In this document: piece by piece, positions 3,499 to 37,503 of the stretch
Layout of the letters: each line of letters opens with the position of its first letter
Numbering within the stretch: position 1 is the first letter of the stretch
Assembly: GCA_951406725.2 (NCBI GenBank)
Contig: CATOCA020000001.1
Coordinates: forward strand, 3,162,001-3,226,000
Reading direction: 5' to 3'
Origin: Octopus vulgaris
Taxonomy: Eukaryota
Length of the DNA: 64,000 bases
Position numbers and translations under genes: made by a program
Notes under the pieces: generated by a model
Database searches by the model: none
The model's input: only the letters and a program-made list of their open reading frames with translations
Told to the model about the DNA's origin: nothing

Positions 3499-3570
3499 GG
3501 TTTCCCAAGTCTCAGAACAAGCAAGTCCAGACAGTGGCATTTACTTCAAAAGATGCATCACAGCAAGTTG
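3499..3570 (+). CDS. 72-bp phase 1-1 exon of the + strand gene: (G)FPKSQNKQVQTVAFTSKDASQQV
   Basis: Acceptor tatttatttcag, donor G|gtgagt, open frame; same splice context as the 51-bp exons downstream. Confidence 0.75.
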
Positions 3571-4252
3571 GTGAGTATAAAATATCTAATTGAATTCTAT
3601 CAATTTTACCTTCACCTGAGGCATTCATGGATTACTTAATATTACTAAGGAGAGATCAGAAGGATATGCAAATAATCGTAACATAACAAAAGGAAAAGTC
3701 GCAATTGGTATAAAATTGCATCAATGATTTGAACTAGAATAAGTGGTTTCACATGAATGGGAATTAAATTAAAAATAAAATTAGCGAGCAGAAATGGAAT
3801 AGTCCAGATGGATAGTAAAAAGTTAAATTAAAGAAAAGACTATTGTCTATAAAGTATAAAATGCAGAGAAATAAGAAGAGCTAAAAATTCCAGTCTGTTA
3901 TATATTTTGAGTATTGTTATCACTAGCGATATCAAGATATAACTTTGTATTTTGAATTTTATGTGTAGATGTATATTTATAGATGTAAATGTAATATGTA
4001 CACAAATATATACACATATATACATGCACTAGCACTATGACACGGCAACGATGGGTCTTTAATGCTAGTGCAAAATAAATTTGGCGCTTCCAGTTTGATT
4101 TATGTCTCTGTCTTGCTTATATATTCTTGAAAGTCAGTACTATTCCAAATATAATTCCTTTGCTGTAATAAGTAAATGAACGTTCATATATATATATATA
4201 CATATATGATACATAAACATGTATATATATATATATATATAAATATATACAC

Positions 4253-4318
<66 letters not shown>

Positions 4319-5175: not shown

Positions 5176-5226
5176 AGACGCCAGCACTTGTTGACAATGA
5201 AGTTCAAACAGAAGTAGGACCAGTTG
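5176..5226 (+). CDS. 51-bp microexon copy 1: ETPALVDNEVQTEVGPV
   Basis: ttcag|AG ACG CCA ... CCA GTT G|gtgagt; symmetric phase 1, no stop. Confidence 0.8.
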
Positions 5227-5567
5227 GTGAGTATAAATCAATATTACCTTTTTGACTTCTATCAAGTTTGCCATTACCTCATCTACTTTATTAAGGAGGA
5301 TACGTGAGAAGTAAATGAGATACGTAAGATGTCTTAATTGAGAGCGGAGATTTAGGAATGCCAATCAATTTTGTGGAGGGCATCAATAATGGGCCCACTA
5401 TCCGAAGTAGAGATGAGTAGCATATTGGAACCTGCATTAAGGAAATATAGGAAAATAATCCCTAAAATTTGGTTCATAATTTCCCCCCTGGCGTACAGCA
5501 TGCTTCTAAAACCCCAAGATTCCGTGTTTGATTTCAGGCAGTGACGTGATTAATAATGATGATAATG

Positions 5568-5648
<81 letters not shown>

Positions 5649-5700
5649 GTAATAATAATAATAACAACAACATCGAAAAATACCTTAGGAATTTCCCCAA

Positions 5701-6945: not shown

Positions 6946-6955
6946 ATACATATAT

Positions 6956-7851: not shown

Positions 7852-7903
<52 letters not shown>

Positions 7904-7914
7904 TATATAGAAGG

Positions 7915-7965
7915 AGCTTCTACAGGACTAGAACTGTTTCATTCAAAAGAAATCATCAGGAAGCT
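7915..7965 (-). ncRNA. Type I hammerhead ribozyme in PLE pseudo-LTR
   Basis: Reverse complement AGCTTC-CTGATGA-TTTCTTTTGAAT-GAAACAG-TTCTAGTC-CTGTA-GAAGCT: stem I 6 bp, stem III ACAG/CTGT, GUA site. Confidence 0.8.
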
Positions 7966-8774
7966 AGTAGACAAGAGTTGTTTTGGCATTTATACATTTA
8001 GGCAGGTTTAAATGGGTGGTGGTGGGGGACTTTTTTGGGGGTAGGCATGGCGAAAAACTGTCATTATTAGGGGAGTGGTCAAAGGAATCGGTGGTAAAGT
8101 AGATAAAGGAATAAATAAAAAAATAAATAGAAAAATAGAGTTTTAGGTAAGTAAGGAGACTCTCACTTGTACATCTACATATATATATACACATACATAT
8201 ATATATACACATACATACACATACATATACATATATATATACATATATATACATATATATATACACATACCCATGAACGTACACACAGATACACATATAC
8301 ATACATATACATACATATATGTATACTCACTCGCACCTATACAAATGCATATACATGCACACGCATACACACACATTTTTATTCTCTTATTTTATTTTTA
8401 TTATTACTACTTTTGTTTATATCTTTATTTTTATCTTGACCGAGGTCAGCCGGTCTCAAGGGATGAACTAAAGATTCCGTTTATCTATCTACTTACTGAT
8501 ACGAACGCAAGCACTCACTCACGCCCACACACTCACACGTACACACATACACATACGCAATGCACGTGTTTTATTCATACACGCATACATCTACATACAT
8601 TCACGTATATTCACATACACGCATACACATACATACCTCAACACACCCACAGAAGACTAGTCCATACATATACACTAATTAATATATATACACATATACA
8701 TATACACATACATACACATACATACATATACATACACATATACATATATATATATACATTTATTTTATAGAAGG

Positions 8775-8825
8775 AGCTTCTACGGGACTAGAGCTGTTTC
8801 ATTCAAACGAAATCATCAGGAAGCT
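8775..8825 (-). ncRNA. Type I hammerhead ribozyme, second pLTR copy
   Basis: Same as 7915-7965 with one stem III mismatch. Confidence 0.7.
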
Positions 8826-9614
8826 AGTAGACAAGAGTTGTTTTGGCATTTATACATTTAGGCAGGTTTAAATGGGTGGTGGTGGTGGACTTTTTTGGGG
8901 GTAGGCATGGCGCAAAACTGTCATTATTAGGGGAGTGGTCAAAGGAATCGGTGGTAAAGTAGATAAAAGAATAAATAAAAGAATAAAAAAAAGAATAAAA
9001 AAATAAAAAATATAAATAGAAAAATAGAGTTTTAGGTAAGTGGGGAGACTCTCACTTGTACATCTACATATATATATATATATACACATATACACACCCG
9101 CATATTCACATATATCTATACATATACATACATACCCACATATACATACATATATATACATACGTACACATACATATACATATATATATACATATATATA
9201 CATATATATACACATACCCATGTACGTACACACAGATACACATATACATGCATATATGTATACCCACTCGCACATATATATATACAAATGCATATACATG
9301 CACACACATACACACACATTTTTATCCTCTTATTTTAATTTTATTAACTACTTTTGTTTATATCTTTATTTTTATCTTGACCGGTCAGCCTGTCTCAAGG
9401 GATATCTAAAGATTCCGTTTGTCTATCTACTTACTGATACGAACGCAAGCACTCACTCACGCCCACACACTCACACGTACACACACGCACGAGTTATATT
9501 CATACACGCCTACACATACATACCTCAACACACCCACAGAAGACTAGTAAATACATATACACTAATTAATATATATACACATATACATATACACATATAT
9601 ACACATACATACAT

Positions 9615-9677
<63 letters not shown>

Positions 9678-9726
9678 TATTCATATACATATACATACAC
9701 ATATACATTCATACATATATACACAT

Positions 9727-10030
9727 ATGACGTCAAACAGCTTTAAGACCCGTTGGTACGCCCACACACACTCGTTCCGGCGACCTGATAAATCCAACCA
9801 AACTACCCTCGCCGCCCACATCTGGTACCTTAAAAGGAACTCCATCCCCTTCAAGACCAAGTGGAGACTACTACAGAAGGCCCGTTCGTACGCAGGAGGC
9901 CATACCTGCTGTGACCTTTGTATTTCCGAGAGCCTAGAGATCTTGTTCGCCAAAGGCCATCTCCTCAACAAGATCTCAGAACACTCCCCAATTTGCATGC
10001 ATAAAATTTATGCAAACTACAAGAACTATA
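9727..10030 (+). pseudogene. C-terminal part of the Penelope-like GIY-YIG endonuclease
   Basis: [17 protein letters not shown]...TTLAAHIWYLK...CDLCISESLEIL...LLNKISE...CMH, the F-K-x-R..H / CDLC..E / LLN..E pattern. Confidence 0.8.
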
Positions 10031-10293
10031 GACCCACCCGCAACCCGATTGACGACACCCCACCCACAAAAAAACCCAACCCCTCCGTTCCCCCAGCACC
10101 CCCGATTAACTTTCCTCCTAAGACTACTCACAGATTGTATATGTACACCTGTATATATGTATTGTATATATGTATAGAAATGAATAGGTGTTAGTAGGAA
10201 TATACGCATGTATGTGAGTGCGTGTATATGTATGTGTATATGTATGTACTTGTGTATGTGTGTATGTGTGTGGTTTTTTATATCTTATTTGTT

Positions 10294-10324
<31 letters not shown>

Positions 10325-10487
10325 GTACATATATATGTGTGTGTATATATATGTATGTATGTGTATGTGTATGTATGTGTATGTATGTATGTGTATGTAT
10401 ATATGTGTATATATATGTGTGTATGTAAGTGTATGTATGTGTGTATGTGTATATATATATGTATATGTGTATATGTGAATATATATG

Positions 10488-10520
<33 letters not shown>

Positions 10521-11072
10521 GTGTACGCTCGTGTGTTTATGTATATGTAAGTATGTAGAGTTGTGTGTATGTGTATGTATGTATATATACATATGTGTAG
10601 ATGGGTATATACGTGTATGCCTCTATGTATGTTTCCGTCTGTGCAGAGTGTAATTGCATGTGTATATATATATCTATTGTTTATTATTCATTATTTATTA
10701 CTTGAGTATGCGTTTGTATGCATGTATGTATTTATGTATATAAGGAGGCGCGTGAGTGTGTGTATGTGTATGCATTTGTATAAACATATGTATACATTTA
10801 TGCATGTATGTGCTTGTGTGTATATATATGTATATATATGTATGTATATATACACACATATATATATGTGTATATGTATGTGTGTATGTGTATGTGTATA
10901 TATATATATATATGTAATGTATATATAGATATAGAGATATATATATGTATATGTATATATATGTGTATGTATGTGTATGTATGTGTGTGTGTGTGTATGT
11001 ATGTATGTATATGTATGTATGTATGTGTATGTGTGTGTATGTATGTGTATGTATGTGTATATATGTGTGTGC

Positions 11073-11116
<44 letters not shown>

Positions 11117-11743
11117 ATATATGTGTGTTTATATATATATATATGTGTACGCTCGTGTGTTTATGTATATGTAAGTATGTAGAGTTATGTGTATGTGCAT
11201 GTATGTATGTATATATACATATGTGTAGATAGGTATATACGTGTATGCTTATATATATGTTTCCGTCTGTACAGAGGGCAACTGCATGTGTATATATATA
11301 TCTATTATTTATTATTCATTATTTATTACTTGAGTATGCCTTTGTATGCATGTATGTATTTATGTATATAAGGAGGCGCGTGAGTGTGTGTATGTGTATG
11401 CATTTGTATAAATATATGTATACATTTATGCATGTAGGTGCTTGTGTGTATGTATGTGTATATATGTGTATATATGTATATGTGTGTATGTGTATATATG
11501 CACATGTGCATGTGTATATGTATATATATATGTATGTATATGTATATGTATATATATGTGTATGTGTATGTGTGTGTATGTGTATGTGTGTATACATATA
11601 TGTGTAAAAATGTGTGTGTAAATGTATATATATATATGTATATATGTGTGTGTATGTGTATGTGTATATGTGTATGTGTATATGGATATGTATATATGTA
11701 TGTGTGTGTATATGTGTATGTATGTATATATGTATATATGTAG

Positions 11744-11791
<48 letters not shown>

Positions 11792-11931
11792 GCTTGTGTG
11801 TTTATGTATATGTAGGTATGTAGAGTTATGAGTGTATGTATGTATGTGTATATACATATGTGTAAATAGGTATATATGGGTATGTTTATATGTAGGTATC
11901 CGTTTGTATAATGGGTAACTGCACGTATATA

Positions 11932-11966
<35 letters not shown>

Positions 11967-12204
11967 TGAGTATGCATGTATGTATATATGTGTATGCTTG
12001 TATGCATGTATGTTTTTATGAACATATGGAGGCGCGTGTGTGTGTGGATGTGTATGCATATGTATAGACATATGTATACATTTATGCATGTATGTACTTA
12101 TGTGTATATATAGATGCGCGCACGTGTCTGTGTGTATGTGTACGCATGTATGTATGTATGTGTATGTATATATATATATATATATTTTTTCAAAAAGCTT
12201 CCCG

Positions 12205-12250
<46 letters not shown>

Positions 12251-13125
12251 ATGTGTATATGTGTATATATGTATGAATGTATATGTGTATGTATATGTAT
12301 GTATGTGTATGTATGTGTATATGTATATGTGTATATATATTAATTAGTGTATATGTATGGACTAGTCTTCTGTGGGTGTGTTGAGGTATGTATGTGTATG
12401 CGTGTATGTGAATATACGTGAATGTATGTAGATGTATGCGTGTATGAATAAAACACGTGCATTGCGTATGTGTATGTGTGTACGTGTGAGTGTGTGGGCG
12501 TGAGTGAGTGCTTGCGTTCGTATAAGTAAGTAGATAGATAAACGGAATCTTTAGTTCATCCCTTGAGACCGGCTGACCTCGGTCAAGATAAAAATAAAGA
12601 TATAAACAAAAGTAGTAATAATAAAAATAAAATAAGAGAATAAAAATGTGTGTGTATGCGTGTGCATGTATATGCATTTGTATAGGTGCGAGTGAGTATA
12701 CATATATGTATGTATATGTATGTATATGTGTATCTGTGTGTACGTTCATGGGTATGTGTATATATATATGTATATATGTATATATATATGTATATGTATA
12801 TGTATGTGTATATATATATGTATGTATATGTGGGTATGTATGTATATGTATAGATATATGTGAATATGTGGGTGTATATATGTGTATATATATGTAGATG
12901 TACATGTGAGAGTCTCCTTACTTACCTAAAACTCTATTTTTCTATTTATTTTTTTATTCTTTTATTTGATTTTTATTTATTCCTTTATCTACTTTACCAC
13001 CGATTCCTTTGACCACTCCCCTAATAATGACAGTTTTGCGCAATGCCTACCCCCAAAAAAGTCCCCCACCACCACCCATTTAAACCTGCCTAAATGTATA
13101 AATGCCAAAACAACTCTTGTCTACT

Positions 13126-13176
13126 AGCTTCCTGATGATTTCTTTTGAATGAAACAGTTCTAGTCTTGTAGAAGCT
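13126..13176 (+). ncRNA. Type I hammerhead ribozyme in the 3' pLTR
   Basis: AGCTTC-CTGATGA-TTTCTTTTGAAT-GAAACAG-TTCTAGTC-TTGTA-GAAGCT. Confidence 0.8.
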
Positions 13177-14142
13177 CCTTCTATATAATAAATTCATTTA
13201 CTCTGCTATGTATTGAGTACCTTATTTACTGTGGTTAACCCCGACTCAACCCGGGACCTACATATATATATATATATAAATATATACACATATATATATA
13301 TATATCAACATACATCTATATATACATATACATATATACATTCACACACACATAAATATGTGTGTGTGTGCGTGTGTGCCTGTGTGTATGTGCTTGTGTG
13401 TTTGTGTGTGTACAGATAATGAGTTTCTATACAAGAGTACAGTGTTTTGGGATACCTGATATCACTTTACGCTCCACTTGCTTAGGACAAACATTGTTCA
13501 CCTGAAAATAGCTGCTTATTAAGGAGGATTAATGACATTGAAATATCTTCAAATGTTTCCAGAATCATATCCTATTCTGATGAATTGTGATGTGGGGATT
13601 TAAGATTAAAGATTACCAGCAGCAACCTTTTAAAAAGAGAGCAGGTGCATATTAATCCTACTTGATGTATTGTGACATGCGTTTATGGTTAGATGTTTGG
13701 AGTCCAGCTTCATTGACGTCAGAATTAGAAGAGGAGAAGAATGTTGATTAGAGAAATCTGCAGGAGATAAGATAATGCCAAATCATTGATAGGGTTCCGA
13801 CTGATGAAAGGGCAAATTAATCTAGGTGATTATCAGTGTTTTCAAATGAAAAATTAAAGAAGGTAATGATTAGATTATATAGATGTCTTAATAGGGTTAT
13901 TGTTAGATTATGTAGGATGCCATAATTGGGATATATAGGAAGGTGAGTCTATTTAGTTGTGGACCTGGATATTGAGCGATTACATGGTATTACTGTAGAA
14001 AATATGAAAATGTCGACCCGAGCAGTACTGGTCACCAGCTGACCAGCAACGACAGGAATACCTCACAAGAATAAAATTTTGATTATTAAGAAATATAAAG
14101 ATGTTTTTCTATGAAGTGTAAAATTTAGAATATTTATTTCAG

Positions 14143-14193
14143 AGACGCCAGCACTTGTTGACAATGAAGTTCAAACAGAAGTAGAACCAGTTG
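14143..14193 (+). CDS. 51-bp microexon copy 2: ETPALVDNEVQTEVEPV
   Basis: Intact AG/GT sites, phase 1-1. Confidence 0.8.
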
Positions 14194-18130: not shown

Positions 18131-18181
18131 AGACGCCAGCACTTGTTGACAATGAAGTTCAAACAGAAGTAGAACCAGTTG
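18131..18181 (+). CDS. 51-bp microexon copy 3: ETPALVDNEVQTEVEPV
   Basis: Intact AG/GT sites, phase 1-1. Confidence 0.8.
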
Positions 18182-18527
18182 GTGAGTATAAATCAACATT
18201 ACCTTTTTGAGTTCTATCAAGTTTGCCATTACATCATCTACTTTATTAAGGAGGATACGTGAGAAGTAAATGAGATACGTAAGATGTCTTAATTGAGAGC
18301 GGAGATTTAGGAATGCCAATCAATTTTGTGGAGGGCATCAATAATGGGCCCACTATCCGAAGTAGAGATGAGTAGCATATTGGAACCTGCATTAAGGAAA
18401 TATAGGAAAATAATCCCTAAAATTTGGTTCGTAATTTCCCCCCTGGCGTACAGCATGCTTCTAAAACCCCAAGATTCCGAGTTTGATTTCAGGCAGTGAC
18501 GTGAATGATAATGATGATGATGATGAA

Positions 18528-18595
<68 letters not shown>

Positions 18596-18623
18596 TAATA
18601 ATAATAATAATAATAATAATAAT

Positions 18624-20511
18624 CATAAAATTCATAGAGCACTCTATGAATAAATGGCAAACAGTCCTACACCTCCAAACAAAAGAGGGACTCATGAAAA
18701 CCAAAGACATCCCCATTAGAAGAGGAATATTCCAGGGAGACACGCTCTCTCCACTCCTTTTCTGCTTGGCACTGTCACCTCTATCTGATATGCTAAATAG
18801 AACTGGATGCGGATATAAATGTTACGGCAAAACGATCAGCCACCTTTTATATATGGATGACCTAAAACTATACGCTGCAAATGACAAACAGCTGGAAACA
18901 CTATTAAAGACAGTTCATGGATTTACCAAAGAAATAGATATGAAATTTGGATTAGAAAAATGCGCCAAAGTAACCATGAAAAGAGGAAAACTAGTTAAGA
19001 GTAACAACATCACACTAGATAAAACCAATGAAATAAAAGAATTAGACCAAAGCCAAACTTACAAATACTTAGGAATCCATGAACTAGATAAGACACAACA
19101 CACACAAATGAAAGAGAAAATAAAAAAAGAATATTATAGACGAGTTAGATCAATACTAAACACAGAGCTCAATGCTAAAAACAAGATAATAGGTATCAAC
19201 ACTTTAGCTGTCCCAGTTATAAGTTACAGCTACAATATCCTTAACTGGACACGAAATGAACTGACCAAAATAGATAGGAAAACAAGAAAAATAATGACAG
19301 GATCTAGGATGCATCACCCAAAATCTGACATATAAAGACTATATATACAACGTATGGAAGGTGGTAGAGGCCTTATACAGCTGGAAAACTACTATAAAAT
19401 AACCACCATAGGACTGCAAAAATATCTACTTCAGAAGGAAGGAAAACTGATCCAGATAGCGGCAAAACACGAGCAAAACAAAAAACTGTTCTCAGTATTT
19501 AAGGAAGCTGACAAATACAAACAAGAAATCATACCACCTAATAAACATGAAGAAGAAGAAGAAGATGAAGAAACAACAAAAGCTATAAAACAAATGAAAT
19601 CCAAACTAAAAACAGAACAGCAACGAACCATGATAAAACGATGGCAAGAAAAGCCCCTTCATGGTAAATACTGCACTAAACTAAACGCAAAAGAAATAGA
19701 CAAAGAAAAATCCCAGCAATGGTTGAGAAGCTCAGGACTCAAAGCAGAAACAGAGGGATTTTTAATTGCAGCACAAGACCAAAGCCTCCCCACCAGAAAT
19801 TACCAAAAACATGTAATGAAAAGAAATATTACAAGTAACTGCAGAATATGTGGAGATGGACAAGAAACAATAAATCATATTATCTCTAGCTGCCCAGTCC
19901 TGGCTAAGAAGGAATATATTCACAGACATGACAGAGTTGGAACCTACATACATTGGAAGCTATGCCAACATTATGGAATAACAACAGAAAAAAGATGGTA
20001 TAGGCACACACCAGAAAAGGTCACAGAAAACGAGAAAGCAACCATACTCTGGGATATGCCGATACACACAGATAGAGAAATTAAGGCCAACAGACCAGAT
20101 ATAGTTGTCAGAGATCATGAAGAAAAAAATGCTTTTTAATTGATGTATCAATACCGGCAGATGACAACGTGTCTCTAAAAGAAATGGAGAAACTCTCAAA
20201 ATACAAAGACCTGGAAATAGAGGTAACTAGAATGTGGAATCTGAAAACAGAAACAATTCCTATCATAGTAGGTGCATTAGGCATGATAAAAAAATATTCA
20301 GACAAATACATAACAAAAACACCAGGACTTACAAACACATATAACATACAGAAAATTGCACTACTAGGCACTGCCCACATCCTACGCAGAACACTTTCCA
20401 TACAATAACCATCAGAGCATCACAACAAATCACAGCACATACCCAAGGCACACAGAGCTGCGCTCGGTAGTGAAGTGAAAGCACGCTATAAAAATAAAAA
20501 TAAAACTACTG
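18624..20511 (+). mobile_element. 5'-truncated R4/Dong-clade non-LTR retrotransposon (RT, CCHC, RLE) in (AAT)n
   Basis: GIFQGDTLSP, LLYMDDLK, CRICGDGQETINHIISSC, RPDIV...IDVSIP...EKLSKYKDL. In-frame TAA at 19333-19335 and an A-run frameshift at ~20130. (AAT)n on both sides. Confidence 0.9.
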
Positions 20512-22850: not shown

Positions 22851-22885
<35 letters not shown>

Positions 22886-22900
22886 TATACACATATATAT

Positions 22901-22934
<34 letters not shown>

Positions 22935-23776
22935 CAACATACATATATATCTACATACATATACATATATACATTCACACACACATAAATATGTGTGTGT
23001 GTGCGTGTGTGCGTGTGTGTATGTGCTTGTGTGTTTGTGTGTGTACAGATAATGAGTTTCTATACAAGAGTACAGTGTTTTGGGATACCTGATATCACTT
23101 TCTGCTCCACTTGCTTAGGAGCAAACACTGTTCACCTGAAATTAGCTGCTTATTAAGGAGGATTAATGGCATTGAAATATCTTCAAATGTTTCCAGAATC
23201 ATATCCTATTCTGATGAATTGTGATGTGGGGATTTAAGATTAAAGATTACCAGCAGCAACCTTTTAAAAAGAGAGCAGGTGTATATTAATCCTACTTGAT
23301 GTATTGTGACATGCGTTTATGGTTAGATGTTTGGAGTCCAGCTTCATTGACATCAGAATTAGAAGAGGAGAAGAATGTTGATTAGAGAAATCTGCAGGTG
23401 ATAAGACAAGGCCAAATCATTGATAGGGCTCCGACTGATGAAAGGGCAAATTAATCTAGGTGATTATCAGTGTTTTCAAATGAAAAATTAAAGAAGGTAA
23501 TGATTAGATTATATAGATGTCTTAATAGGGTTATTGTTAGATTATGTAGGATGCCATAATTGGGATATATAGGAAGGTGAGTCTATTTAGTTGTGGACCT
23601 GGATATTGAGCGATTACATGGTATTACTGTAGAAAATATGAAAATGTCGACCCGAGCAGTACTGGTCACCAGCTGACCAGCAACGACAGGAATACCTCAC
23701 AAGAATAAAATTTTGATTATTAAGAAATATAAAGATGTTTTTCTATGAAGTGTAAAATTTAGAATTTTTAATTCAG

Positions 23777-23827
23777 AGACGCCAGCACTTGTTGACAATG
23801 AAGTTCAAACAGAAGTAGAACCAGTTG
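23777..23827 (+). CDS. 51-bp microexon copy 4: ETPALVDNEVQTEVEPV
   Basis: Intact AG/GT sites, phase 1-1. Confidence 0.8.
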
Positions 23828-24174
23828 GTGAGTATAAATCAACATTACCTTTTTGACTTCTATCAAGTTTGCCATTACCTCATCTACTTTATTAAGGAGG
23901 ATACGTGAGAAGTAAATGAGATACGTAAGATGTCTTAATTGAGAGCGGAGATTTAGGAATACCAATCAATTTTGTGGAGGGCATAAATAATGGGCCCACT
24001 ATCCGAAGTAGAGATGAGTAGCATATTGGAACCTGCATTAAGGAAATATAGGAAAATAATCCCTAAAATTTGGTTCATAATTTCCCCCCCTGGCGTACAG
24101 CATGCTTCTAAAACCTCAAGATTCCTTGTTTGATTTCAGGCAGTGACGTGAATAATAATGATGATGATGATGAA

Positions 24175-24262
<88 letters not shown>

Positions 24263-24283
24263 GTAATAATAATAATAATAATA

Positions 24284-24691
24284 AAAGGGGCTGATAGCTA
24301 CCTAACTCAGATACCAGGAAAGCCAAAAATGGCAGAAGTTCAAAAGATAGTGCTCATGGGAACTGCTCATATCCTACGCAAAATACTCTCTATGTAATCC
24401 CAAGGTTTAAAACAAACTTTTTTTTATTTATTTACTTTTTTTTATGTATTAGACATTCACTAGTACAACACAAATCTCAAGGTTTAAAACAAACATAATT
24501 TTCGGTTTAAAAAAAAAAAAAAAAAACTTTTTTTTTCTTTTTAGACATTCATTAGTACAACATCCCCACCCCCCAAATATATGGCACACTAGGCATAACA
24601 ACAACATGAACTTCCAACCCTGTTGTCTCTTGAGGTCTCTGGGTGAGACTTGGAGCCAACTTGTACAAATATAAAGCAAAAGTCAAACATA

Positions 24692-24692
<1 letters not shown>
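24284..24692 (+). mobile_element. Very short 3' end of a second R4/Dong family in (AAT)n
   Basis: KGADSYLTQIPGKPKMAEVQKIVLMGTAHILRKILSM* plus a 3' UTR, flanked by (AAT)n. Confidence 0.85.
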
Positions 24693-24762
<70 letters not shown>

Positions 24763-27107
24763 GTTCAGCTGCTCAATGGAATTATGAGAGACCCAAAGAA
24801 AACACCTGAATGTTTAGCACGTGGCATTACTTACCTACTCCCAAAGAATAACGAAACCAACCTTCCAAAAAACTATAGGCCTATAACCTGTCTATCCACC
24901 ACGTATAAAATCCTAACATCTATCCTGGCGGAGAAAACATATGCATTCATGGAGAAGAACGATATTCTCCCCATTGAACAAAAAGGCTCTTACGGATGCA
25001 AAGATCAACTGCTAATCAATCGTATGATCCTTGAGAACTGTCACAAGCGCAGAAAGCTCAGCACCGCATGGATTGACTATAAAAAGGCCTTCGACAGTAT
25101 ACCGCATCCATTGATCTTGAAATCGCTGGACATCTTCAAAATTTCCCCTGTGATTTCAAACTTCCTGAAGCACAATATGTCGTTGTGGAATACGAATCTC
25201 CAATTATACCACTCTAATGGAGTACTTGCCTCAGAAAATATAAACATCAACTGTGGAATTTTTCAAGGTGACTCACTTTCACCTTTAATATTCTGCATAG
25301 CCCTAATACCACTTACAAGTGAATTAAACAGAACAGGGTATGGGTATAAAATTGCCAATAAAAAAATAAGCCATCTATTTTATATGGATGACTTAAAACT
25401 TTATGGTAAAGACAATAATGAACTTGAAGGCCTATTGCACACCGTGAAAGCATTCAGCGATGACATCGGGATGGAGTTTGGACTTGAGAAGTGTGCCAAG
25501 GCCACTTTCCAGAAAGGTAAAGTGAAGACCACAAATTCAGTCGTGTTAGATGTTGACACAGTCATGAGAGAGCTTGAGCAAGAACAAACATACAAATATT
25601 TAGGGATAAATGAAGGCTCTGGTATTCAGCATGCAAGCATGAAAGAAAAAATCAGGAAGGAATGTTATAGGAGAGTTCGTGCAGTCCTGAAATCTGAACT
25701 AAATGCACGTAACAAGGAGTTAGCTATAAATTCCTTAGCAGTTCCAGTTGTTACTTATAGCTACAATGTGTTGAACTGGAATATGAGTGAAGTAAAGAAT
25801 ATAGATAGAAAAATATGCAAGCTGCTGAGTTGTAATAGGATGCACCACCCAAAGGCAGACGTAGATCGCCTTTACCTTCCCAGAGCCCAAGAAGGTCGAG
25901 GCCTGATCCAATTTGAACTAGCTTACAAAACAACCACAATTGGACTGGCCAAATATCTCGAAATATCGAATGACTGGATGCTAAAGCTCGTGGAAAATCA
26001 CGAGAGACGAAAGAAGCTTCATTCTATCATAAAGGAAAGCAAAAAATTTGCTATTGATCTCGTGCAGGATACCCAAACTGAACAACCCGAGGGAAGTAGG
26101 GCAACTATTGTTGTAAAGAAGGTAAAAATGATGCCAATGAAGAAAGCGCACGAGCAATTGGCTGATAGGTGGGAGGAGAAACCTCTGCACGGCAAATATG
26201 TGACCCGCAGCAAACAAGCTGATGTTGACCAGAAGCAAACCCATCAGTGGCTACGGAGCTCAGGGCTAAAAGCAGAGAGCGAAGGTTTCATCCTGGCTGC
26301 TCAAGATCAAAGCCTATTAACCCGGAACTACCAGGCCAATGTGATGAAAAATGGAGCAGACCCAAAATGCCGATTCTGCAACGACATGATTGAAACAGTG
26401 GACCACCTAATCTCTGGATGTAAAGTCTTAGCACCAGTGGAGTATAAATTAAGACATGACAGAGTTGGCCAATATCTCCACTGGCTAATAAGTCGGCATT
26501 ACAATATCAAAACTGCCGACAAGTGGTATAATCACCACCCTGAGGCTGTAACTGAAGGAGAAAATGTAACCATTCTGTGGGACTTTCCAGTACATACAGA
26601 CCGACCCATCAAGGCCAATAAACCAGATATTGTTGTGAAAGACCAAAACAATAAAGTTTGCTTATTGATCGACATGAGCATCCCCTGTGATCATAATATC
26701 TCAGCGAAAGAGTTTGACAAGCTCAGAAAATATAAAGACCTGCTCATTGAAATTGAGAAAATGTGGCATCTCAAGGCGGTTACAATACCAGTGATCGTAG
26801 GAGCACTAGGAATGATCAAGAAGGGAACCGAAAATTATATGAGAATGATCCCTGGCTTACCAACCCTGCAAGAAGTGCAAAAGATTGTCTTAACTGGTAC
26901 ATCACACGTATTGAGAAGAGCATTGTCGATGTGAGAACTGTTGCTGCTCATGTATTTTAATTTAACTTAAAAAAAAAAAAAAAGAATAAACAAACTACTG
27001 AGTTTGGTTTAATGGCTTACCAATGTATACTATGAGTTTCTTTGCCCTAGGAGTCGGGAAGACACTCGGCAAGAAATGGAAGAGAATTTGAAAGAAGAAA
27101 AAAAAAG
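24763..27107 (+). mobile_element. 5'-truncated R4/Dong retrotransposon, third family; ORF open to 26934
   Basis: NYRPITCL, WIDYKKAFDS, GIFQGDSLSP, FYMDDLK, CRFCNDMIETVDHLISGC, KPDIV..LIDMSIP..KLRKYKDL; A-rich tail followed by (TAA)n. Confidence 0.92.
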
Positions 27108-27167
27108 TAATAATAATAATAATAATAACAAGAACAACATCGAAAAATACCTTAGGAATTTCCCCAA

Positions 27168-27213
27168 AGCACCTGATGAAGGCTGCAGGGTATAACAGCC
27201 GAAACGTTGTGCT
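27168..27213 (+). ncRNA. Minimal hammerhead motif, unit 4
   Basis: As at 5701-5745. Confidence 0.75.
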
Positions 27214-29312
27214 AACAACAAACAAGATCATGCCAAATATGTAAATAAGGTAAATAGTTTTAGATAGCAGTTCCTAAAGAACCATTCTAATGGTACTAGA
27301 ATGGTGTTTGTTGATGCCATGTGTCGCAGGCTATAAGGCATGGAAAATGATGGGAATATACAAGAGATGTACAGTGACCTAAAGCGAAATCAACCATTCC
27401 CAGCCATGGACAGTTTGAAATGCCGAATGAAACGAAGAATCAAAATATTTCAGCTTAGTGATTTCATGAAGAAAGAGGAAGAAAGAAGTTGAGAGTTGTG
27501 TGAAGAAAGTAAGAGTTTAGAGTGCAACACGAGGTGATGCTGTACCACAGAACGTATAGAAACGTTGTACTCAGTTATGTTATAAGCATAACCTGGAAGA
27601 AGAGATTTGGGGTATAAAGGTGAACCGATTGATGACCTGTACATACAAGAAAGTGTTTACTTACCAAAGCCAGCGGCAGCAGGACAATTTCAATAGAGAA
27701 TGGTAAGATGTACATGGGCTTAGAGATCAGCTACATATCTATAAAAGAATGGCTATCTGAGTAAATGTGTCCGGAGGACTGGAATCACCGGACCTCCAGC
27801 GTGTGCGCAACAAGCATTTTCAATCTGGAATTAATGCAAGAAGGAAAGGAGAATATAACTGATTTGAAAGATGTATGGCCTGATGTGGCTAATGCTTATT
27901 GTTCTATACCATAGAAATGGTTGATGAAAGCAATGAACGATTAATAGGTGATTAAAGATCTGATGAGGAGCCGCTATAATGATTTCACAATGCGGTTCAT
28001 CACAGAAAATGTTACAACACACTGGCATCGTGTTGAGACAGGAATTTGAATAGCCGGAGGTTGACAATATGAGCCATTTGGTTTGAGATGGTTATGAGGA
28101 TGTTACTTATATCAGCAGAAAGGGCTCAAGTGAATTACAACAAGAAGGCATTCATGGATTACTTAATAATACTAAGGAGAGATCAGAAGGATATGCAAAT
28201 AATTCTGGTTAGACTGGATTAACTCATCATTTGGGGCAAAAGTGTGGTTTAAATCGAATAAGTAGTGCTGTGTATCGTTTGTAAATGATCAGCAGAAACA
28301 AGTGAAGTTACAAATAGCAGGAGAAATCATGCCAAAAGCTTGAAGACAATGGTACGGTAGCTTGCTGAGAGACACGTCTTGAGGTAATAGGATCAAGGCA
28401 CAAACTGTGATGCGGTTAAAAAACAACATATATAATCTTTATATATTTAAAACTGAGAATGTGTGTCTGTCTGTCTGTCTGTGTGTTTCCCTAAACTTGA
28501 GAACTACACAACCAATTTCATTCAAATTTTACATATGCCTTACTTAGGGTCCGGGGAGTGTCATGGGCCAACGAAAATGTTCAACTTCTTGCCTAGAGCG
28601 AGCCCATAGCAATATCATATCTTCTCCACTATTTCAGTATTACGTGTTAAAAGTGAAACAAAATAATTCTCTATTTTATGTCAGATGCTTTCACTTTAAC
28701 AATAAAAATAATAATAACAATTGAATTATATGTAGTAAGTAATAATTAAAATCAAACTAAATTATAATATAATCGTAACATAACAAAAGGAAAAGTCGCA
28801 ATTGGCATAAAATTGCCTCAATGATTTGAACTAGAATAAGTGGTTTCACATGAATGGGAATTAAATTAAAAATAAAATTAGCGAGCAGAAATGGAATAGT
28901 CCAGATGGATAGTAAAAAGTTAAATTAAAGGAAAGACTATTGCCTATAAAGTATAAAATGCAGAGAAATAAGAGTTAAAAATTCCAGTCTGTTATATATT
29001 TTGAGTATTGTTATCACTAGCGATATCAAGATATAACTTTGTATTTTGAATTTTATGTGTAGATGTATATTTATAGATGTAAATGTAATATGTACACAAA
29101 TATATACACATATATACATGCACTAGCACTATGACACGGCAACGATGGGTCTTTAATGCTAGTGCAAAATAAATTTGGCGCTTCCAGTTTGATTTATGTC
29201 TCTGTCTTGCTTATATATTCTTGAAAGTCAGTACTATTCCAAATATAATTCCTTTGCTGTAATAAGTAAATGAACGTTCATATATATATATATACATATA
29301 TGATACATAAAC

Positions 29313-29369
<57 letters not shown>

Positions 29370-30211
29370 ATATAAATATATATATATATATCAACATACA
29401 TATATATCTACATACATATACATATATACATTCACACACACATAAATATGTGTGTATGTGCTTGTGTGTTTGTGTGTGTACAGATAATGAGTTTCTATAC
29501 AAGAGTACAGTGTTTTGGGATACCTGATATCACTTTCTGCTCCACTTGCTTAGGAGCAAACATTGTTCACCTGAAAATAGCTGCTTATTAAGGAGGATTA
29601 ATGACATTGAAATATCTTCAAATGTTTCCAGAATCATATCCTATTCTGATGAATTGTGATGTGGGGATTTAAGATTAAAGATTACCAGCAGCAACCTTTT
29701 AAAAAGAGAGCAGGTGTATATTAATCCTACTTGATGTATTGTGACATGCGTTTATGGTTAGATGTTTGGAGACCAGCTTCATTGACATCAGAATTAGAAG
29801 AGGAGAAGAATGTTGATTAGAGAAATCTGCAGGTGATAAGACAAGGCCAAATCATTGATAGGGCTCCGACTGATGAAAGGGCAAATTAATCTAGGTGATT
29901 ATCAGTGTTTTCAAATGAAAAATTAAAGAAGGTAATGATTAGATTATATAGATGTCTTAATAGGGTTATTGTTAGATTATGTAGGATGCCATAATTGGGA
30001 TATATAGGAAGGTGAGTCTATTTAGTTGTGGACCTGGATATTGAGCGATTACATGGTATTACTGTAGAAAATATGAAAATGTCGACCCGAGCAGTACTGG
30101 TCACCAGCTGACCAGCAACGACAGGAATACCTCACAAGAATAAAATTTTGATTATTAAGAAATATAAAGATGTTTTTCTATGAAGTGTAAAATTTAGAAT
30201 TTTTAATTCAG

Positions 30212-30262
30212 AGACGCCAGCACTTGTTGACAATGAAGTTCAAACAGAAGTAGAACCAGTTG
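30212..30262 (+). CDS. 51-bp microexon copy 5: ETPALVDNEVQTEVEPV
   Basis: Intact AG/GT sites, phase 1-1. Confidence 0.8.
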
Positions 30263-30571
30263 GTGAGTATAAATCAACATTACCTTTTTGACTTCTATCA
30301 AGTTTGCCATTACCTCATCTACTTTATTAAGGAGGATACGTGAGAAGTAAATGAGATATGTAAGATGTCTTAATTGAGAGCGGAGATTTAGGAATGCCAA
30401 TCAATTTTGTGGAGGGCATAAATAATGGGCCCACTGTTGAAAGTATATAAATATTGACCGAAACCTGTGCGAACTCTTGTAGACCATTGATGGTAGGGAT
30501 CTCTCACAATAACAGAATATAGATTATTGATAATGATAAAAAGACTTTAGTGTAAATAATATTTATTTCAG

Positions 30572-30625
30572 AGAATCTAAAGCTTGAAGGGAAATAAGTG
30601 CAGACGATGGTAGCAGAGCCAGTTG
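30572..30625 (+). pseudogene. Dead paralogous microexon ENLKLEGK*VQTMVAEPV
   Basis: Acceptor tatttatttcag intact, in-frame TAA, donor mutated to G|ctaagt. Confidence 0.7.
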
Positions 30626-31427
30626 CTAAGTATAAAATAACAGCAGCCCACAAATGTCTATTTTGCCTTTGTTTCTATGGCTGCCTCATGTGTCGATAGA
30701 GAAAATGGTGAAATACGACAGAGAGTGATCTGGGAGGGAGGGTTAGTTTATAAGTTTGTGAAAGGAAGGTAGTAGAGGAAGGAGGAATGGTGGATATGGT
30801 TGGGGATGAGAAACAGTAGGGCATCATATGTGCATGTAGGTACATGAGGGAGAATGGAGGAGAATGCGACATGTGTGGGGGAGGCATTGTTGGGGGACAA
30901 ACATGCGCTTATGACCTTGATTTTATTTAGGTTGGTGGTTGTTCTCAAGCACAGAAAACTGCCAAGTGACTGTTAGGCTCAACATTTCAAGATCATTACT
31001 CACCATTTCGTCCCATTCTTCCTGGGTATTCATTAGGGAAATCTGGAGGTGAGAGAACAATGCCATATCGTAGATTGGGCTCCGATAGATGGAAGGGAAA
31101 ATTAAACTAAGAGATAATCCGTGTTATCAAGTGATAATTATATAAGATAATTATTAGATTATGTAGATATCTTAATAGAGTGATTCTTAGATTATGTGGG
31201 ATGTCTTAATAGGGAGATATATGAAGGTTAGTCTATTTAGTTGTGGGCCTGAATATTGAGCTATTACATGGTATCCCTATAGAAAGTATGAAAATGTTGA
31301 CCCAAGCCGTACGGGTCACCAGTTGACCATCAAGGACAGGAATGTCACAGAATAACAAAATTTTGATTAATAATTAAGATAAAGACATTTTTCTGTAAAG
31401 TGTAAAATTTAGAAAATTTTGTTTCAG

Positions 31428-31478
31428 TTACTTTAACGCTTGTTGACAATGAAGTCCAAACAGAGGTGGAGCCAGTTG
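31428..31478 (+). CDS. Older paralogous 51-bp microexon: VTLTLVDNEVQTEVEPV
   Basis: gtttcag|TT ACT ... GTT G|gtgagt. Synonymous differences (GTC, GAG GTG GAG) keep LVDNEVQTEVEPV while the flanking intron has diverged. Confidence 0.8.
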
Positions 31479-32007
31479 GTGAGTATAAATTACCAATACC
31501 TTATTGATTCCTATCAATTTTACCATTATCCGAGCAACTTTGTTTGACAGAATGACTGAGAACAAGTTCTTTTGCTACATTTATTTCGAATGGTTAGCTA
31601 CACATTTTTTTTTCGATTCTTGTACAACTACAGGAATATCCAAGAAATGGATTTTATAGAAAAGTGGAAGCATCAGATATTCTTCCACTCAGAAAAAAAG
31701 GCGTCTCAAGATAAGGAGAAATATGCAAAAGATAAAATATAAACCCTTAAGCGGTTCTGTCCCTTTAAGGAGAATAAATACCGTCTGTCATCTCAATTTA
31801 GTCTCTCTCGTCCTCTCCCTTTTTCGCTCTCTTCCACTCCCTTTGTATACAACAAGCAGCAGCTCCTCTCGTTCCCAGTCAAGTAACCACATCAATTTGT
31901 TTTTTAAAATATTGTTATTATTGAAATTTAATAAAATGTCCACCAAGGTTATCGCTGTTGGCAAAATGGCTAAATTAGAAAACAGAATAGAGTTAATATT
32001 GTCCTTT

Positions 32008-32225
32008 GGGAAGGTGGTGAGCTGGCAGAAACATTAGAACGCTGGGCGAAATGCTTAGCTTTACTTCATCTGTCTTTACATCCTAAGTTCAAATTCCACC
32101 GAGGTCGATTTTGCCTTCCATCCTTTCGAGGCCGATAAATTGAGTACCAGTTGCGTACTGGGGTCGATCTAATCGACTGACTCCGTCGCCAAAAGATTCT
32201 GGCCTTGTGCCTAGAGTAGAAAATG
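32008..32225 (+). mobile_element. tRNA-derived SINE
   Basis: A/B-box-like head (gagctggcagaa...gttcaaattcc) and a 12-bp TSD atattgtccttt (31996-32007, 32226-32237); same family inverted at 56031-56217. Confidence 0.8.
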
Positions 32226-34681
32226 ATATTGTCCTTTAGAATAGGAACTAAAAGGATTTTGTTGTTTAAAGGTAAACGGGTGATTTAATGACAAAGTGTT
32301 TGTTCGTTTTACATTTTTAGTAAGCTTACTGATTGATTATTGTTGTTGGTGCTTTTGCTTAACCAGATGTTATGGTGAAACTTGTTCCAATAGTGAACAG
32401 CCTGGTTTTTTTTCACTGTCATTACGTCCACTATTCAACCATTACATCTATTCAATATTGCCTTTATTCAAGTAGAAGGCTGCTTTGCAGCTCAGACAAG
32501 CTCTCTCTCTGTCTTTCTTTTTCTCTCTCTATTTCTCTCTCTCTCTTTCTCGCTCCCTTTCACTATCTGCAAGTTTCAATACAGTAAATGATATCATCCT
32601 CTCCCTTTTATCATCTGCTCTCTATGCTCCCATGTACTGGATGGGTGGTCACTGTCCATGTCATAACAGTAAACTACCCATAATGATTGCTTGAGGATTA
32701 CCTCTCAATTAACCATTCCAGCTTTTTCATGGTGGTATGCCCTTCTTATCACCAACCACTTTACAAAGGGTCCTGGGTGAATATAATTGTGGCACAAACA
32801 CTACAAGAGATTGCCATGTCCTCGGCAAGATTAAACCTCCCTCTCAACCTTACGGTGTCAATTCTCATCCAACAACCACCTCCTAGTGTGTAGAGGGAGC
32901 ATTTGATCATAGCACCAGCATTAGTGAGGTTGTGTCACATTCCAAGTTATTAGAAAGTTAGTCCTCACTACTCTATGATGTGTTTGTTCACTGATATGTT
33001 TAAGATGGGAGAAGAAGAGATTATAGAAGAATCGGAATGCAAAGACTAAAAGATACGAGACAATAAGGATAAAAAAAGTGATTCGAAGGAGCGGTGGAGG
33101 GTGACAACAGTAAATGATGGAGACTGAGTTACAACGGTGTGTGAGGTACCAGAGTGCTTAATTATTTATTAACATTCCTTGGTTGCTCACTCTCACTGTT
33201 TCTCTTGCCCTCCTCCTCTCACTGGGTAATCATGTATGTCTTCTACTATAGGACACCTGTTTCAATCCCTCTGTCACAGTCGAACCTGTCATCCTCTGAC
33301 ACACGACCACCTCCTCCTCCAATGCTCTCCCTCTCAAAGGTTTTTTGTCTTGCAAGTTCTTTGGTGACCCCTACCAGTGCTTGTGGATCCAGATCCCACT
33401 GTAAGGTTGTTGGTGTTGGGAAGAGTATCCAGCTGTAAAATCCTGCCAAATCAGACAGTGATGCCTGGTGCATTCTTCTCCCTAGCCAGCCCCTGACAAA
33501 ACGTACAAACCCTGCCAGAATGGGGAACCGACGTTCAATGATGATAGTGGTAGTGATGGTAGGTAGCGATGGATACTAATTACTTGCAAATACATCAAAG
33601 TTATACATGTTAAATTAGGAGAGAGACTGACCAAATCTCAACTGAGATAATGGATAATTACAGGTTTCTGGATTGCCATAAATACTAGTAATTACTATCA
33701 CATGGGTAATTACAGGTTTATATATTTCTGTGAATATTTTCATATATATCTGTATATTTGTAAAACACTAATTAGTATTTTAAATCAGAGCATTTAGAAT
33801 TAGCCCAGCATTAAGGAAGTGGAGTGCAGAAAGTTATTGACTATAAATTATCAATAATTATTCGTTATCTCTAAATCGGTAAAAGGCAATTTCTGTTTTG
33901 TTTATTCGAATTTTATTTACCTCATTCATTCATAGAATTGGTGTTGGGGCTAATCTAATTTTTAACATCTAACATGAGGTCAGGGAGAGAGAGAGAGAGA
34001 GAGAGAGAAGAGAAAGAGAGAGAGAGAAAGAAAGAGAGAAGGAGAAAGAGAGAGAGAGAAAGAGATCATAAATCTTAGGATTGGTCGTGTAATAGCTACT
34101 CAGGCCATATTTAGTACTCACATACATACACACACATATATATAACAATACGCAGCTGGTCACAGCCTCTGTAAAAAACACCCAGATCTAACCCGTCAAA
34201 TATTCCATTCTTTCATCTTGTTAAACATCACAGAGTTAACTTACAAAATACAGTGTTTTGTTTTGAGGGGTGGAGTGTGGTAGCAGTCGGGATGCAATAA
34301 ATTATTTCCTCATTGTACAGTATGTGGTTGTACATGTGTAGACCTTCTAGTATTAACCACAATTGAAGTGGTCAAGGTATACATAGCCAGATCATCATGG
34401 ATATCGCTCTTCAGTAACAAACTCCGCTGGTGTATATCAGTGTTTTCAGCTTGTAACCCCACTGATGTCGCTATTTCCGTGTTTATCTACAATAAATGAA
34501 ATGGAAAGTGTCTTGAAAATGGTGTGGTAGGAATGTTGTCCAATATTTTCGTTAAATTGAGAAGATTTGATTTTTTTTGTGACTCGAATTGCGTAGGAAG
34601 TTGCTGTTACAAATTAATATTACCCATTCATGTCTTTTGAAAATTTAATATAATTTTATTTCTGTTGTTATTGTTATTCAG

Positions 34682-37503
34682 ATGATCACTACATGCAGAT
34701 ACCACGTTTTGACTGTAAAAGTATTATGAAGTCGCATTCATCCAAATTCCGTCCCCTTTGCCCAGCTGTGTCCAAAATATTGCAGCTCACAGATTCCGAT
34801 AATGATTCCAAGAACTTGGTCACAGTTTCAAGAATCGTTGAAATCTGCAATGGAATAGTAACCTATTCACCAGATTTGAAGTTAATAAGTTGTGCCACAA
34901 CAGGCGGTGATTTTGATTTTCATTGTTCTTCTAATGTCACAGACATGACAAGAATTGGTGAACACACTGTTCTAGCCACAATTCCTTTCCGCAAGAAAAT
35001 AGTTTTCATTAATCCATCAAGTTTCCACATAAAATCTCTGGATTATAGTTTCTTTACAATTTCTTATTTCGAACATTCTACATTTGTAGGGACTGAAATG
35101 TTTAGTAAGACAATATATCTCATAGACTGGGATAAAAATAAATTTGAAGAAAAATTTAGTGTGCAAGAAATTGTTGGAAACATAGCAGTTGGTCCACAGT
35201 ATCATATCTTAATAGCCTTAGCTAATATAAATAGAATTAGCTGTTACACAATAGATGGCAGACACTTGTTTCAGTTGAGGACACATTCCATCGATATTCC
35301 AACCGACCTCACCGTATATCGAAATTATTCTTACGCTCTGCAAGGAAATGTAATTTACAAGATTTCAGCAAACGGTGCTGTGTCCCAAAGAGAAATTGGG
35401 ATAAAAGCTCGATATATTTGTGTGGCAACAAATAATATTTACTTGACTGACCGTTTTGGTCTTGCACATATTATTAGGACAAATAAAGATGTTTGGCCTC
35501 GGCTGTCTTACCATCACCAAGACCATGTCCCGAGCCTGATAAACCAAATCCATATTGATGACCCCTCCAACATTACAACGATTCTACCTATGTCAGCCTC
35601 TTCAGTAGTAATTATATATCGGGATCTAAAAGCTATATTAGTTACTGACGAAGGGCAACCGTTTGGTGGAAAATGTTTAACCTTTAAACTCCAGCCTTCT
35701 GTTTTCTGCAGAGTGGATTCGAACACATTTCTTGTCCTTTTTAGTGAGGACAGGTAACTTCAGTATATTACCTGTCCACAACTAACTGAAGGTGATTTAA
35801 TAGACGTCGAAAACAATTACATTCAAATGTGTCATATGGTATCAAAAAGGTGTTTGGCTCTGACCACCAATGAAGGTAAAGTGGAGGTACATATTTTATT
35901 GATTAAAAAGGATCATGTCGACATTGTAAACAGAATTTCATTGGAACATGACAATGTCGCCATTGCTGCTACTCCAATTAATTTTGTAGTTGTAGACAGA
36001 AAGAAACGTAACTTGTTATTTTATTCAAGCTTTGGTGAGGAGCTTTCCAAGAAAAACATTGAGTTCAATGGCTATCCTCATCATGTTTTCACAGACAAAT
36101 TATACTTCTATGTTATCTTCAGGAGAGAGTCTTTGATGACTTGTTACAATATAACTGGACAAAGGAAATGGCAGTTGAAACTTCCTTCAAACTTTCTCTG
36201 TCACGCTGCTGTTTTCCAAGGAACAGCTTATGTGCTGGACGATCTGCTCAGTCGGATTCTTCTTTACAAGTACCATGACTGGTCAGACTGTCATGTAACC
36301 TTTCAAAATCCTTATAATAAAAATCTAAATATTCGACTCGAAGAAAAGGAGAATGACCAAGTTCTCATTGGTGAAATATGTCATCTGGCAAATGGACAGT
36401 TGGTGTTGTCCGACATATATAATGATTGTTTGTTATACATTTCCAACGAAGGGAACATTGTGTCTAGATTATCTCTGCCGTCTACAGCTACAGATGTATG
36501 TCGATGGAATTATAATCAGATAGGCGTCACATTACCTCTAGAGAAGCAATTACGGGTCTTCGGAAACGTATCAAAGGCAGTTATAAGTGTAGCATTAAAC
36601 CAGGCTTATGTACGGGTGTGTAAGCTGGGTGAAAGTCATATTATTTGTTATTGCGATAAACCATCGCATTTAGATATTTTAAACATTAAAAATTGTAATC
36701 AAGTTAAAATAATTCATAAAATTAATATTCCTTTTGTAATGAAATAATTATCGTTAGAAAATGAAACACTAAAGCTATTGATTGTTGGTAAGAAAGCAGT
36801 ATTCTTCTACAAGATCATCAGGAAGAGGGGAAGAAGTGTTTTACCATCCGAAGTGAAAACACCCTCCAATCTCTATGGTTATGACGGTGGTCCTTATAGC
36901 ATTGAGATGATACCCAATATTTTACTGTCGCAAGGGAAAACACAATCCAATCTCTATAGTGGACGTATTGATAAAATGTGTGTTCATTTGATAGACAACA
37001 GCCGCATGTTTGCTGTAAATGAGCATGACTTGCTGGTGAAAGATCATGTCACAAGAAGCCAAATTAACATGTTCATCGATCTAGTAGATGTATTTTCTAG
37101 AAACATCAGTCTCAGTGAAATGTTGTCTTCTAGATTGTATCTACAAGATCTCACTGTTTCTGATAAAGCTCATGAAGTTGTTGTCCCTCAAAGTTTTGGA
37201 GATAGACATCCAGTGGAGATTGGTTGTTTGGTTATTACAGAAAATAACCTGGTTGCTTTATATGACAGCACAAATGAAAACATTAAGATATTAACTTTTG
37301 ATGGTCAACTTGTTGACTCTATCAAGTTAAATGTTGTCCCTAGACATATGTGTTGCTGGCGATCAAACACATTGGTTATAACGACCAATAACTATCAACT
37401 TCTGACATTAAAAGTGGAATTCCCATTGGTCTTGGCAACTTACCACACGGAAAATCGATACAATTGTATCGCTTGTCGATCCGACAATCTACTGGTGTGT
37501 AGC

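Follow-up and report, generated by a model that had tools for sequence, protein, structure and literature searches.

What a run of small, similar exons in front of one giant exon contributes to a protein, and why such a run should grow, is the question raised by a locus of Octopus vulgaris. The stretch of DNA analysed, hereafter the window, comprises 64,000 nucleotides (nt; contig CATOCA020000001.1, C31:3162001-3226000) of a 2.8-Gb assembly of 227 contigs, over which the genome-wide counts were made. It contains seven small exons (cassettes), each encoding a glutamine-threonine (QT) motif that resembles those bound by the dynein light chain LC8, and a giant last coding exon predicted to encode tandem NHL-like propellers. 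On balance, we lean towards the reading that the cassettes form the linker of an ankyrin-RING gene, that they are spliced to the giant exon at the level of the gene family and likely serve in LC8 docking, that the giant exon is broken in this copy, and that one cassette likely expanded fivefold by unequal crossing-over, a neutral process in a gene that is decaying or truncated.

Cassette exons and the gene family to which they belong

The seven cassettes, read from the window sequence, lie on the plus strand, like all other features described here unless stated otherwise. Cassette F (3499..3570, 72 nt, phase 1-1) encodes the motif NKQVQTV. It is followed by five 51-nt cassettes of one type, E1 (5176..5226; motif VDNEVQTE, with a G variant 3' of the motif), E2 (14143..14193), E3 (18131..18181), E4 (23777..23827) and E5 (30212..30262), and by cassette T (31428..31478, 51 nt), an older copy with the same motif as E. 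All seven are preceded by AG and followed by GTGAGT, and all are open, in phase 1 and of a length divisible by three, in agreement with the initial annotation, which had described seven symmetric phase-1 exons here. The four differences between E and T inside LVDNEVQTEVEPV are all synonymous, as was also noted initially. Two further cassettes recognised by sequence comparison are dead: one of 54 nt (30572..30625) has an in-frame stop and has lost its donor, and one of 63 nt (6..68) has an internal stop and has lost both splice sites. The flank pattern of the cassettes has 139 matches in the genome, compared with 5 for a reversed control.

Splicing was assessed on contigs from four runs (four studies, two organism codes, other individuals) aligned with positions 21001-40500; the tool used guesses RNA for three of these runs and makes no guess for one, and none of the runs listed with matches is recorded as RNA. 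Among the 15 joints listed of 30, none of which can be assigned to one locus, GT..AG joints link the E donor to T in all four runs, T to the giant exon in all four, and E to the giant exon in three. The E-type donor joined to T and to the giant exon could be that of E4 or E5, since the E copies are indistinguishable in the contigs. The E-to-T and T-to-giant-exon joints give at least two motifs in series at the family level, and no E-to-E joint is among the joints listed. The in-frame splicing of the cassettes to the giant exon that was proposed initially is therefore borne out for the family, but the product of this copy would stop 357 codons into the giant exon. Exon skipping as a means of tuning valency did not find support: the T acceptor is dead in three paralogs and T is absent from one, and such paralogs would give the E-to-giant-exon joint constitutively, so that this joint is no proof of skipping.

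The description of the locus as a hidden gene is half right. The cassettes are skipped by the public model P0010, but this model already links upstream ankyrin (ANK) and RING exons to the giant exon. The models P0010, P0047 and P0073 would splice ANK-RING straight to the giant exon, and the O. sinensis models P0001 and P0074 include one such cassette. Two apparent alternative last exons near positions 468 and 2769 were rejected, being pieces of repeated intron blocks.

Upstream of the window, 9-25 kb away on the same strand, are five exons for ankyrin repeats and one for a RING with eight Cys/His ligands; the group ends about 9.1 kb short of the window. A search there for one or more missing intermediate ANK exons gave no clear candidate. 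Between the RING exon and F, two cassettes have a QT motif and a dead donor, and two more, of 51 and 87 nt, are open and lack the motif. In P0010, Pfam Ank scores over the cut-off and zf-C3HC4_3 reaches 23.7 bits (E-value 4e-5; cut-off 27 bits), with 36 bits in the paralog P0032. The ANK-RING query has 150 scored matches in the genome, mostly on C31 and C29, and a word-based search with this part returned generic ankyrin proteins only. In diverged paralogs the RING exon is followed by cassettes and then by a 72-nt exon and a last exon that together form a Death domain; Pfam Death scores over the cut-off at several places on C31 and C29, and the public model P0031 splices QT cassettes to Death. 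Judged by these comparisons, the seven exons make up the linker in a family of octopus ankyrin-RING-linker-Death genes, and here Death is replaced by the propeller exon. The order in the parent family is ankyrin repeats, RING, cassette array and Death domain.

The same Death-type paralogs point to the origin of the cassettes. Intron flanks are common to all cassettes and to Death exon 1, and F matches three copies of Death exon 1, ungapped, at 37/72, 33/72 and 33/72 positions, values reached by none of 2000 shuffles (about 19 on average). Homology of this kind identifies the cassettes, at the sequence level, as products of duplication of the first Death-domain exon.

The giant exon (34682..39532, acceptor at 34682) seems to have another source. 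A genome search with its first 357 codons gives 115 matches, most of them on C28 and C27. Among 40 family members compared, the majority consist of one frame of 1,200-1,930 codons that begins with an N-terminal part of its own (150-200 residues), and no QT motif was found there in any of the 40. Loci L061-L100 (C28, C27, C25, C9, C1, C2 and C29) represent this large single-frame family, which is dense on C28. It is present in O. bimaculoides, O. sinensis and Argonauta, and the remaining matches are weak. No Pfam family exceeded the cut-off in the giant-exon pieces of the window or in four propeller members scanned whole, and Pfam NHL was found in just 2 of 41 members (E-value 0.04). The fold was modelled for the first 700 residues of an intact paralog with a 41-row alignment (predicted local distance difference test, pLDDT, 77; single-sequence folding reached only 36). 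The predicted model matches NHL propellers at residues 25-270 and 285-539, and the nearest Atlas clusters are mollusc NHL, with a score of 0.92. The giant exon is thus predicted to encode tandem NHL-like propellers, probably about six judging by its length. In the C31 subfamily the family's own N-terminus is replaced by a splice acceptor. It seems that in one subfamily an ANK-RING-cassette gene captured the greater part of a coding exon from a separate family of single-exon propeller genes, which would have taken the place of Death.

Other relatives of the gene were seen nearby. On the minus strand of the window, at 60777-63207, a decayed ANK-RING-Death paralog faces this gene, with stops in its RING and ANK exons and a Death last exon 53% identical to that of P0031. 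The paralog at L043-L044 (C31:7.29-7.31 Mb) has a doubled cassette-plus-Death block, which fits the two-Death model P0030. A 171-bp tandem repeat (15.2 copies, 96% matches) occupies 48678-51266, and 171-base offsets recur downstream of Death exons in paralogs.

Candidate LC8 motifs in the cassettes

The published LC8 consensus is [D/S]KX[T/V/I]Q[T/V][D/E], and V at -5, counted from Q at 0, raises the affinity and belongs to the phage-selected consensus, as described in PMC3078936. The anchor [T/V/I]-Q-[T/V] is present as VQT in 7/7 cassettes of the window. E and T fit the consensus at five of six positions and have V at -5, and F fits at four, so the recognition of a QT motif of LC8 type in the initial annotation agrees with the consensus as given in PMC3078936. 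The six E/T cassettes have D/S at -4 and D/E at +2, and F has N and V there; at -3 the former have N, F has K, and so do 14 of the 23 distinct peptides of the family. Paralog cassettes carry K-x-T-Q-T forms, namely DKETQT, DKASQTE and DKGVQTD. The DKGVQT of the last is also the core of a ZFPM1 peptide that Table 2 of PMC6607443 lists as an LC8 binder; the same source reports that 7 of 19 high-scoring predicted peptides bound LC8. Between E and T there are no replacement changes at 19.3 motif-core sites, compared with differences at 21 of 95 intron bases (P 0.008), a sign that the coding sequence is under constraint. A canonical LC8 gene is present in the genome.

It is likely, from the motif match, that the cassettes encode putative LC8 docking sites. 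The better motifs of the family probably bind LC8, and for the E motif of the window binding is an even call. The linker would be disordered, given its polar, acidic and proline-containing composition between domains. In working members, by analogy with known LC8 clients, LC8 dimers would bridge two chains at their QT motifs, zip the linker together and so dimerise both the C-terminal domain and the RING end. Over six frames, the window has 8 consensus matches, compared with a mean of 1.15 and a maximum of 5 in shuffles; this count was not used, six of the matches being copies of one cassette.

The conservation of QT across paralogs, the lack of which would have counted against the initial LC8 proposal, is partial. 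Q followed by T or V occurs in 29 of 42 intact 51-nt cassettes from 17 regions, a biased sample because the regions were picked by likeness to E. In 20 other loci, drawn from the first 100 of the 139 flank-pattern matches, the anchor is kept in just 28 of 68 cassettes, and some arrays lack it altogether (0/8, 0/6 and 0/5). The absence of the anchor from the other 40 cassettes, in which VKT, VQA, VKM and VQS are common, is one of the grounds for a different explanation, according to which the cassettes are plain flexible spacers that look QT-like through descent from Death exon 1 and have no useful LC8 affinity, the length of the linker alone being what varies. The homology of F with that exon is consistent with this, as are sound cassettes with EVETE and ASQR variants and the steadier P at +5 than Q at 0 (21 and 18, respectively, of 23 distinct peptides). 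However, T at +1 is found in 17 of these 23 peptides, and the complete pattern D-K-x-[TVS]-Q-T-[DE], which requires changes at -1 and +1 from the Death sequence, is present in several cassette types that have diverged. We regard plain spacers as an unlikely explanation.

Breaks in the giant exon and growth of the array

The breaks in the giant exon were not reported initially. In this copy, the open frame expected through the last exon of an intact coding gene is interrupted three times. The first in-frame stop, TAA at 35755..35757 (AAA to TAA at 35755), is codon 358 of the exon and lies 3' of one whole predicted propeller; a second TAA follows at 36745..36747 (originally TCA), and the C run at 38079..38083 has gained one base, which causes a +1 frameshift. 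Rescue of the stops by adenosine-to-inosine editing was rejected: the paralogs have lysine and serine at these codons, editing would give tryptophan, and the frameshift would persist. A poly-serine tract of the exon, at about 37504-37560, differs in length by 3 to more than 60 bases among paralogs.

Nine loci are at least 95% identical to the giant exon, and the exon is intact in two of them (1611 and 1613 codons). In one intact paralog, F is accompanied by a single sound E; the other has two E cassettes, of which one is sound and one has an altered donor. The changes private to the giant exon of the window comprise 7 synonymous and 20 replacement changes, near the neutral ratio (1003 and 3824 sites, respectively). 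The ratio of non-synonymous to synonymous divergence (dN/dS) is 0.55 between the window and an intact paralog and 0.19 between the two intact paralogs. Letter differences of the contigs from the window and from the two closest paralogs (C31:2.78 Mb and C28:8.15 Mb) were counted, without comparing the letters themselves, in seven intervals within 34681-37455. The counts are 22 versus 23/22, 13 versus 11/11, 4 versus 3/4, 3 versus 3/3, 4 versus 4/4, 6 versus 4/4 and 15 versus 17/15. Over the frameshift interval, three contigs have a single gap. This indicates that the expressed copies look like the paralogs.

The array itself was described as a 27-kb duplication. It is rather five copies of a unit of about 4 kb, each with one E cassette; in the 600 bases surrounding this exon the copies differ by 0.3-2.2%. 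A microsatellite block and two insertions of long interspersed nuclear elements (LINEs) add to the length. One LINE reverse-transcriptase fragment is inserted in unit 3 (18505..20139; RVT_1, E-value 1.8e-15), and another lies between E4 and E5 (24634..26934; RVT_1, E-value 9.3e-27). The paralog at C31:10.5 Mb has two E units with the second LINE between them, which indicates that two copies became five. The microsatellite-rich block, at 7900-13260 inside unit 1, contains an inverted repeat (7901-8758 versus 13190-12262, 91%). No dating was based on a tree of the E units, because it groups the five window copies with a support of only about 0.8 and the flanks of one row are broken. The divergence among E copies is close to the private synonymous divergence of the giant exon (0.7%), which suggests that the expansion of the array and the decay of the exon overlap in time.

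Since the giant exon is broken here, the fivefold expansion of the cassette is likely to reflect neutral unequal crossing-over. The proposal that the expansion multiplies LC8 sites on a working propeller protein does not agree with this broken exon, with the single sound 51-nt cassette of each intact paralog or with the fact that arrays grow equally readily without the QT anchor. Cassette number would drift up or down through recombination between the repeated intron units, with the motif present or not.

Several observations weigh against the reading of likely LC8 docking and neutral growth. The sound parts of the gene include seven cassettes with perfect splice sites and open ANK and RING exons, as far as these were found. 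At the first stop, the private changes split into 3 synonymous and 1 replacement before it and 4 and 19, respectively, after it (Fisher 0.04, post hoc, with small counts), a pattern that hints at selection on a truncated product. The runs come from other individuals and two organism codes and cannot show that this allele is silent. As to docking, E and T have N rather than K at -3 and three acidic residues, and F has V at +2, all of which are of kinds listed as unfavourable in PMC6607443 (at -3 a small residue, at +2 a hydrophobic one, and charges in a cluster). The constraint between E and T reaches past the motif, and Death exon 1 already has D/E-K-x-x-Q in register, so that part of the LC8 match is inherited. 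Concerning the joined architecture, ANK-RING was found upstream of four of the seven loci examined, and all four have a broken giant exon (the nearest to intact with a stop at 1493 of 1611 codons). No ANK or RING was found within about 60 kb upstream of the two intact giant-exon paralogs, in one case across an assembly gap. A whole intact ANK-RING-cassette-propeller gene was not found among the loci examined in this assembly.

Part of this evidence could be accommodated by a locus that functions as a shortened protein, made up of ankyrin-RING, up to seven LC8 sites and one whole propeller. A stop in the last exon would escape nonsense-mediated decay, the expansion would have raised valency, and skipping would tune it. 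The position of the first stop, 3' of predicted propeller 1 (residues 25-270), is in accordance with this view, as are the split of private changes about that stop, the seven sound cassettes, the intact RING ligands and the spacing of the motifs at 17 residues. However, the counts before and after the stop are tiny and post hoc, the contigs look like paralogs rather than this copy, the product would end in a fragment of the second propeller, an E-to-E joint is missing from the joints listed, and arrays without the anchor expand too. A shortened working protein seems rather unlikely. The wider proposal is of a modular octopus family of intracellular ankyrin-RING sensor-ligases with a swappable C-terminus (Death or six NHL-like propellers), in which the strength of dimerisation would rise in discrete steps with the count of LC8 cassettes, each exon giving one site. 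The cassettes, evolved from a Death-domain exon, would change in number through duplication and skipping, and this locus would be a live member with one propeller and seven sites; we consider this proposal distinctly unlikely. It is highly improbable that the five-copy array or the breaks are assembly artefacts, in spite of the frameshift in a C homopolymer and a region rich in near-identical repeats, as the copies are 0.3-2.2% apart with different insertions, two independent nonsense substitutions are found among 27 private changes, and the window contains no N bases.

With the cassettes read as a likely LC8-docking linker in a decaying gene, this copy, with its broken propeller exon, lends itself poorly to testing, and Death-type arrays that look intact at other places in the genome would serve better. 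Compact arrays of cassettes, with a period of 166 bp and up to eight copies, lie between RING and Death at L204, L208, L210, L211, L216 and L218 (C27:23.66 Mb and C29:21.1-29.6 Mb). The anchor is present in 7/7 cassettes of L204 and 0/8 of L211, and these arrays are better suited for testing than the window. If the cassettes bind LC8, the family would provide a graded natural set of LC8 clients with valencies of zero to seven, each exon contributing one site, and the origin of multivalent LC8 clients and the setting of valency by splicing would become directly testable. A short linear motif would have arisen from a duplicated exon of a folded domain. This locus adds the swap of Death for propellers, a recent exon capture that would have joined two large octopus gene families annotated as 'uncharacterized'.

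Comparison with known systems

Nup159 is a multivalent LC8 client. Another is ASCIZ, as described in PMC10046861. Such clients likewise have several [TV]QT motifs in series in an interdomain linker, which fit the consensus given in PMC3078936. In the octopus family, each motif is one symmetric exon and the copy number varies between paralogs; the sites are candidates, and this copy is broken. No description of this octopus family was found among the papers listed in searches of the open-access literature, although supplements of genome papers may list the family.

A small alternatively spliced exon needed for the binding of LC8 (DLC2) is described for myosin Va (exon B; PMC3613824). According to the same source, exon B is a single three-residue exon that completes one site, whereas in the octopus array every exon has a whole site. 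The schistosome micro-exon genes (MEGs) are described in PMC4671649 as having series of small symmetric exons, which can be included or omitted without a break of frame. The octopus cassettes share this organisation (7/7 divisible by three and in phase 1), but they measure 51-87 nt and belong to a large intracellular protein, while the MEG exons described in PMC4671649 are shorter than 36 bp and encode small secreted proteins.

The N-terminal half of the architecture resembles that of the Mind bomb ligases (MIB1/MIB2), in which ankyrin repeats are likewise followed by RING. Among the top matches of the last ANK exon, MIB1 (E-value 1.3e-8, rank 3) has the longest best stretch, at residues 9-55. 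However, none of the 10 matches to the N-terminal MIB_HERC2 (MZM) domain in the genome is on C31, so the family does not belong to Mind bomb. Besides, the octopus genes have one RING, and their C-terminus is Death or propellers.

The TRIM-NHL proteins (Brat, TRIM2/3 and TRIM71) have RING towards the N-terminus and an NHL-like six-bladed propeller at the C-terminus, as predicted here. The propeller model aligns with the Brat NHL with Z 21.4 and a root-mean-square deviation of 3.1 over 241 aligned residues; identity is 9-13%. A B-box family was not found in P0010, and only cassette exons were found between the RING and giant exons. Compared with TRIM-NHL, the octopus proteins would thus have ankyrin repeats and a QT linker in place of the B-box and coiled coil, and probably about six propellers in one exon.

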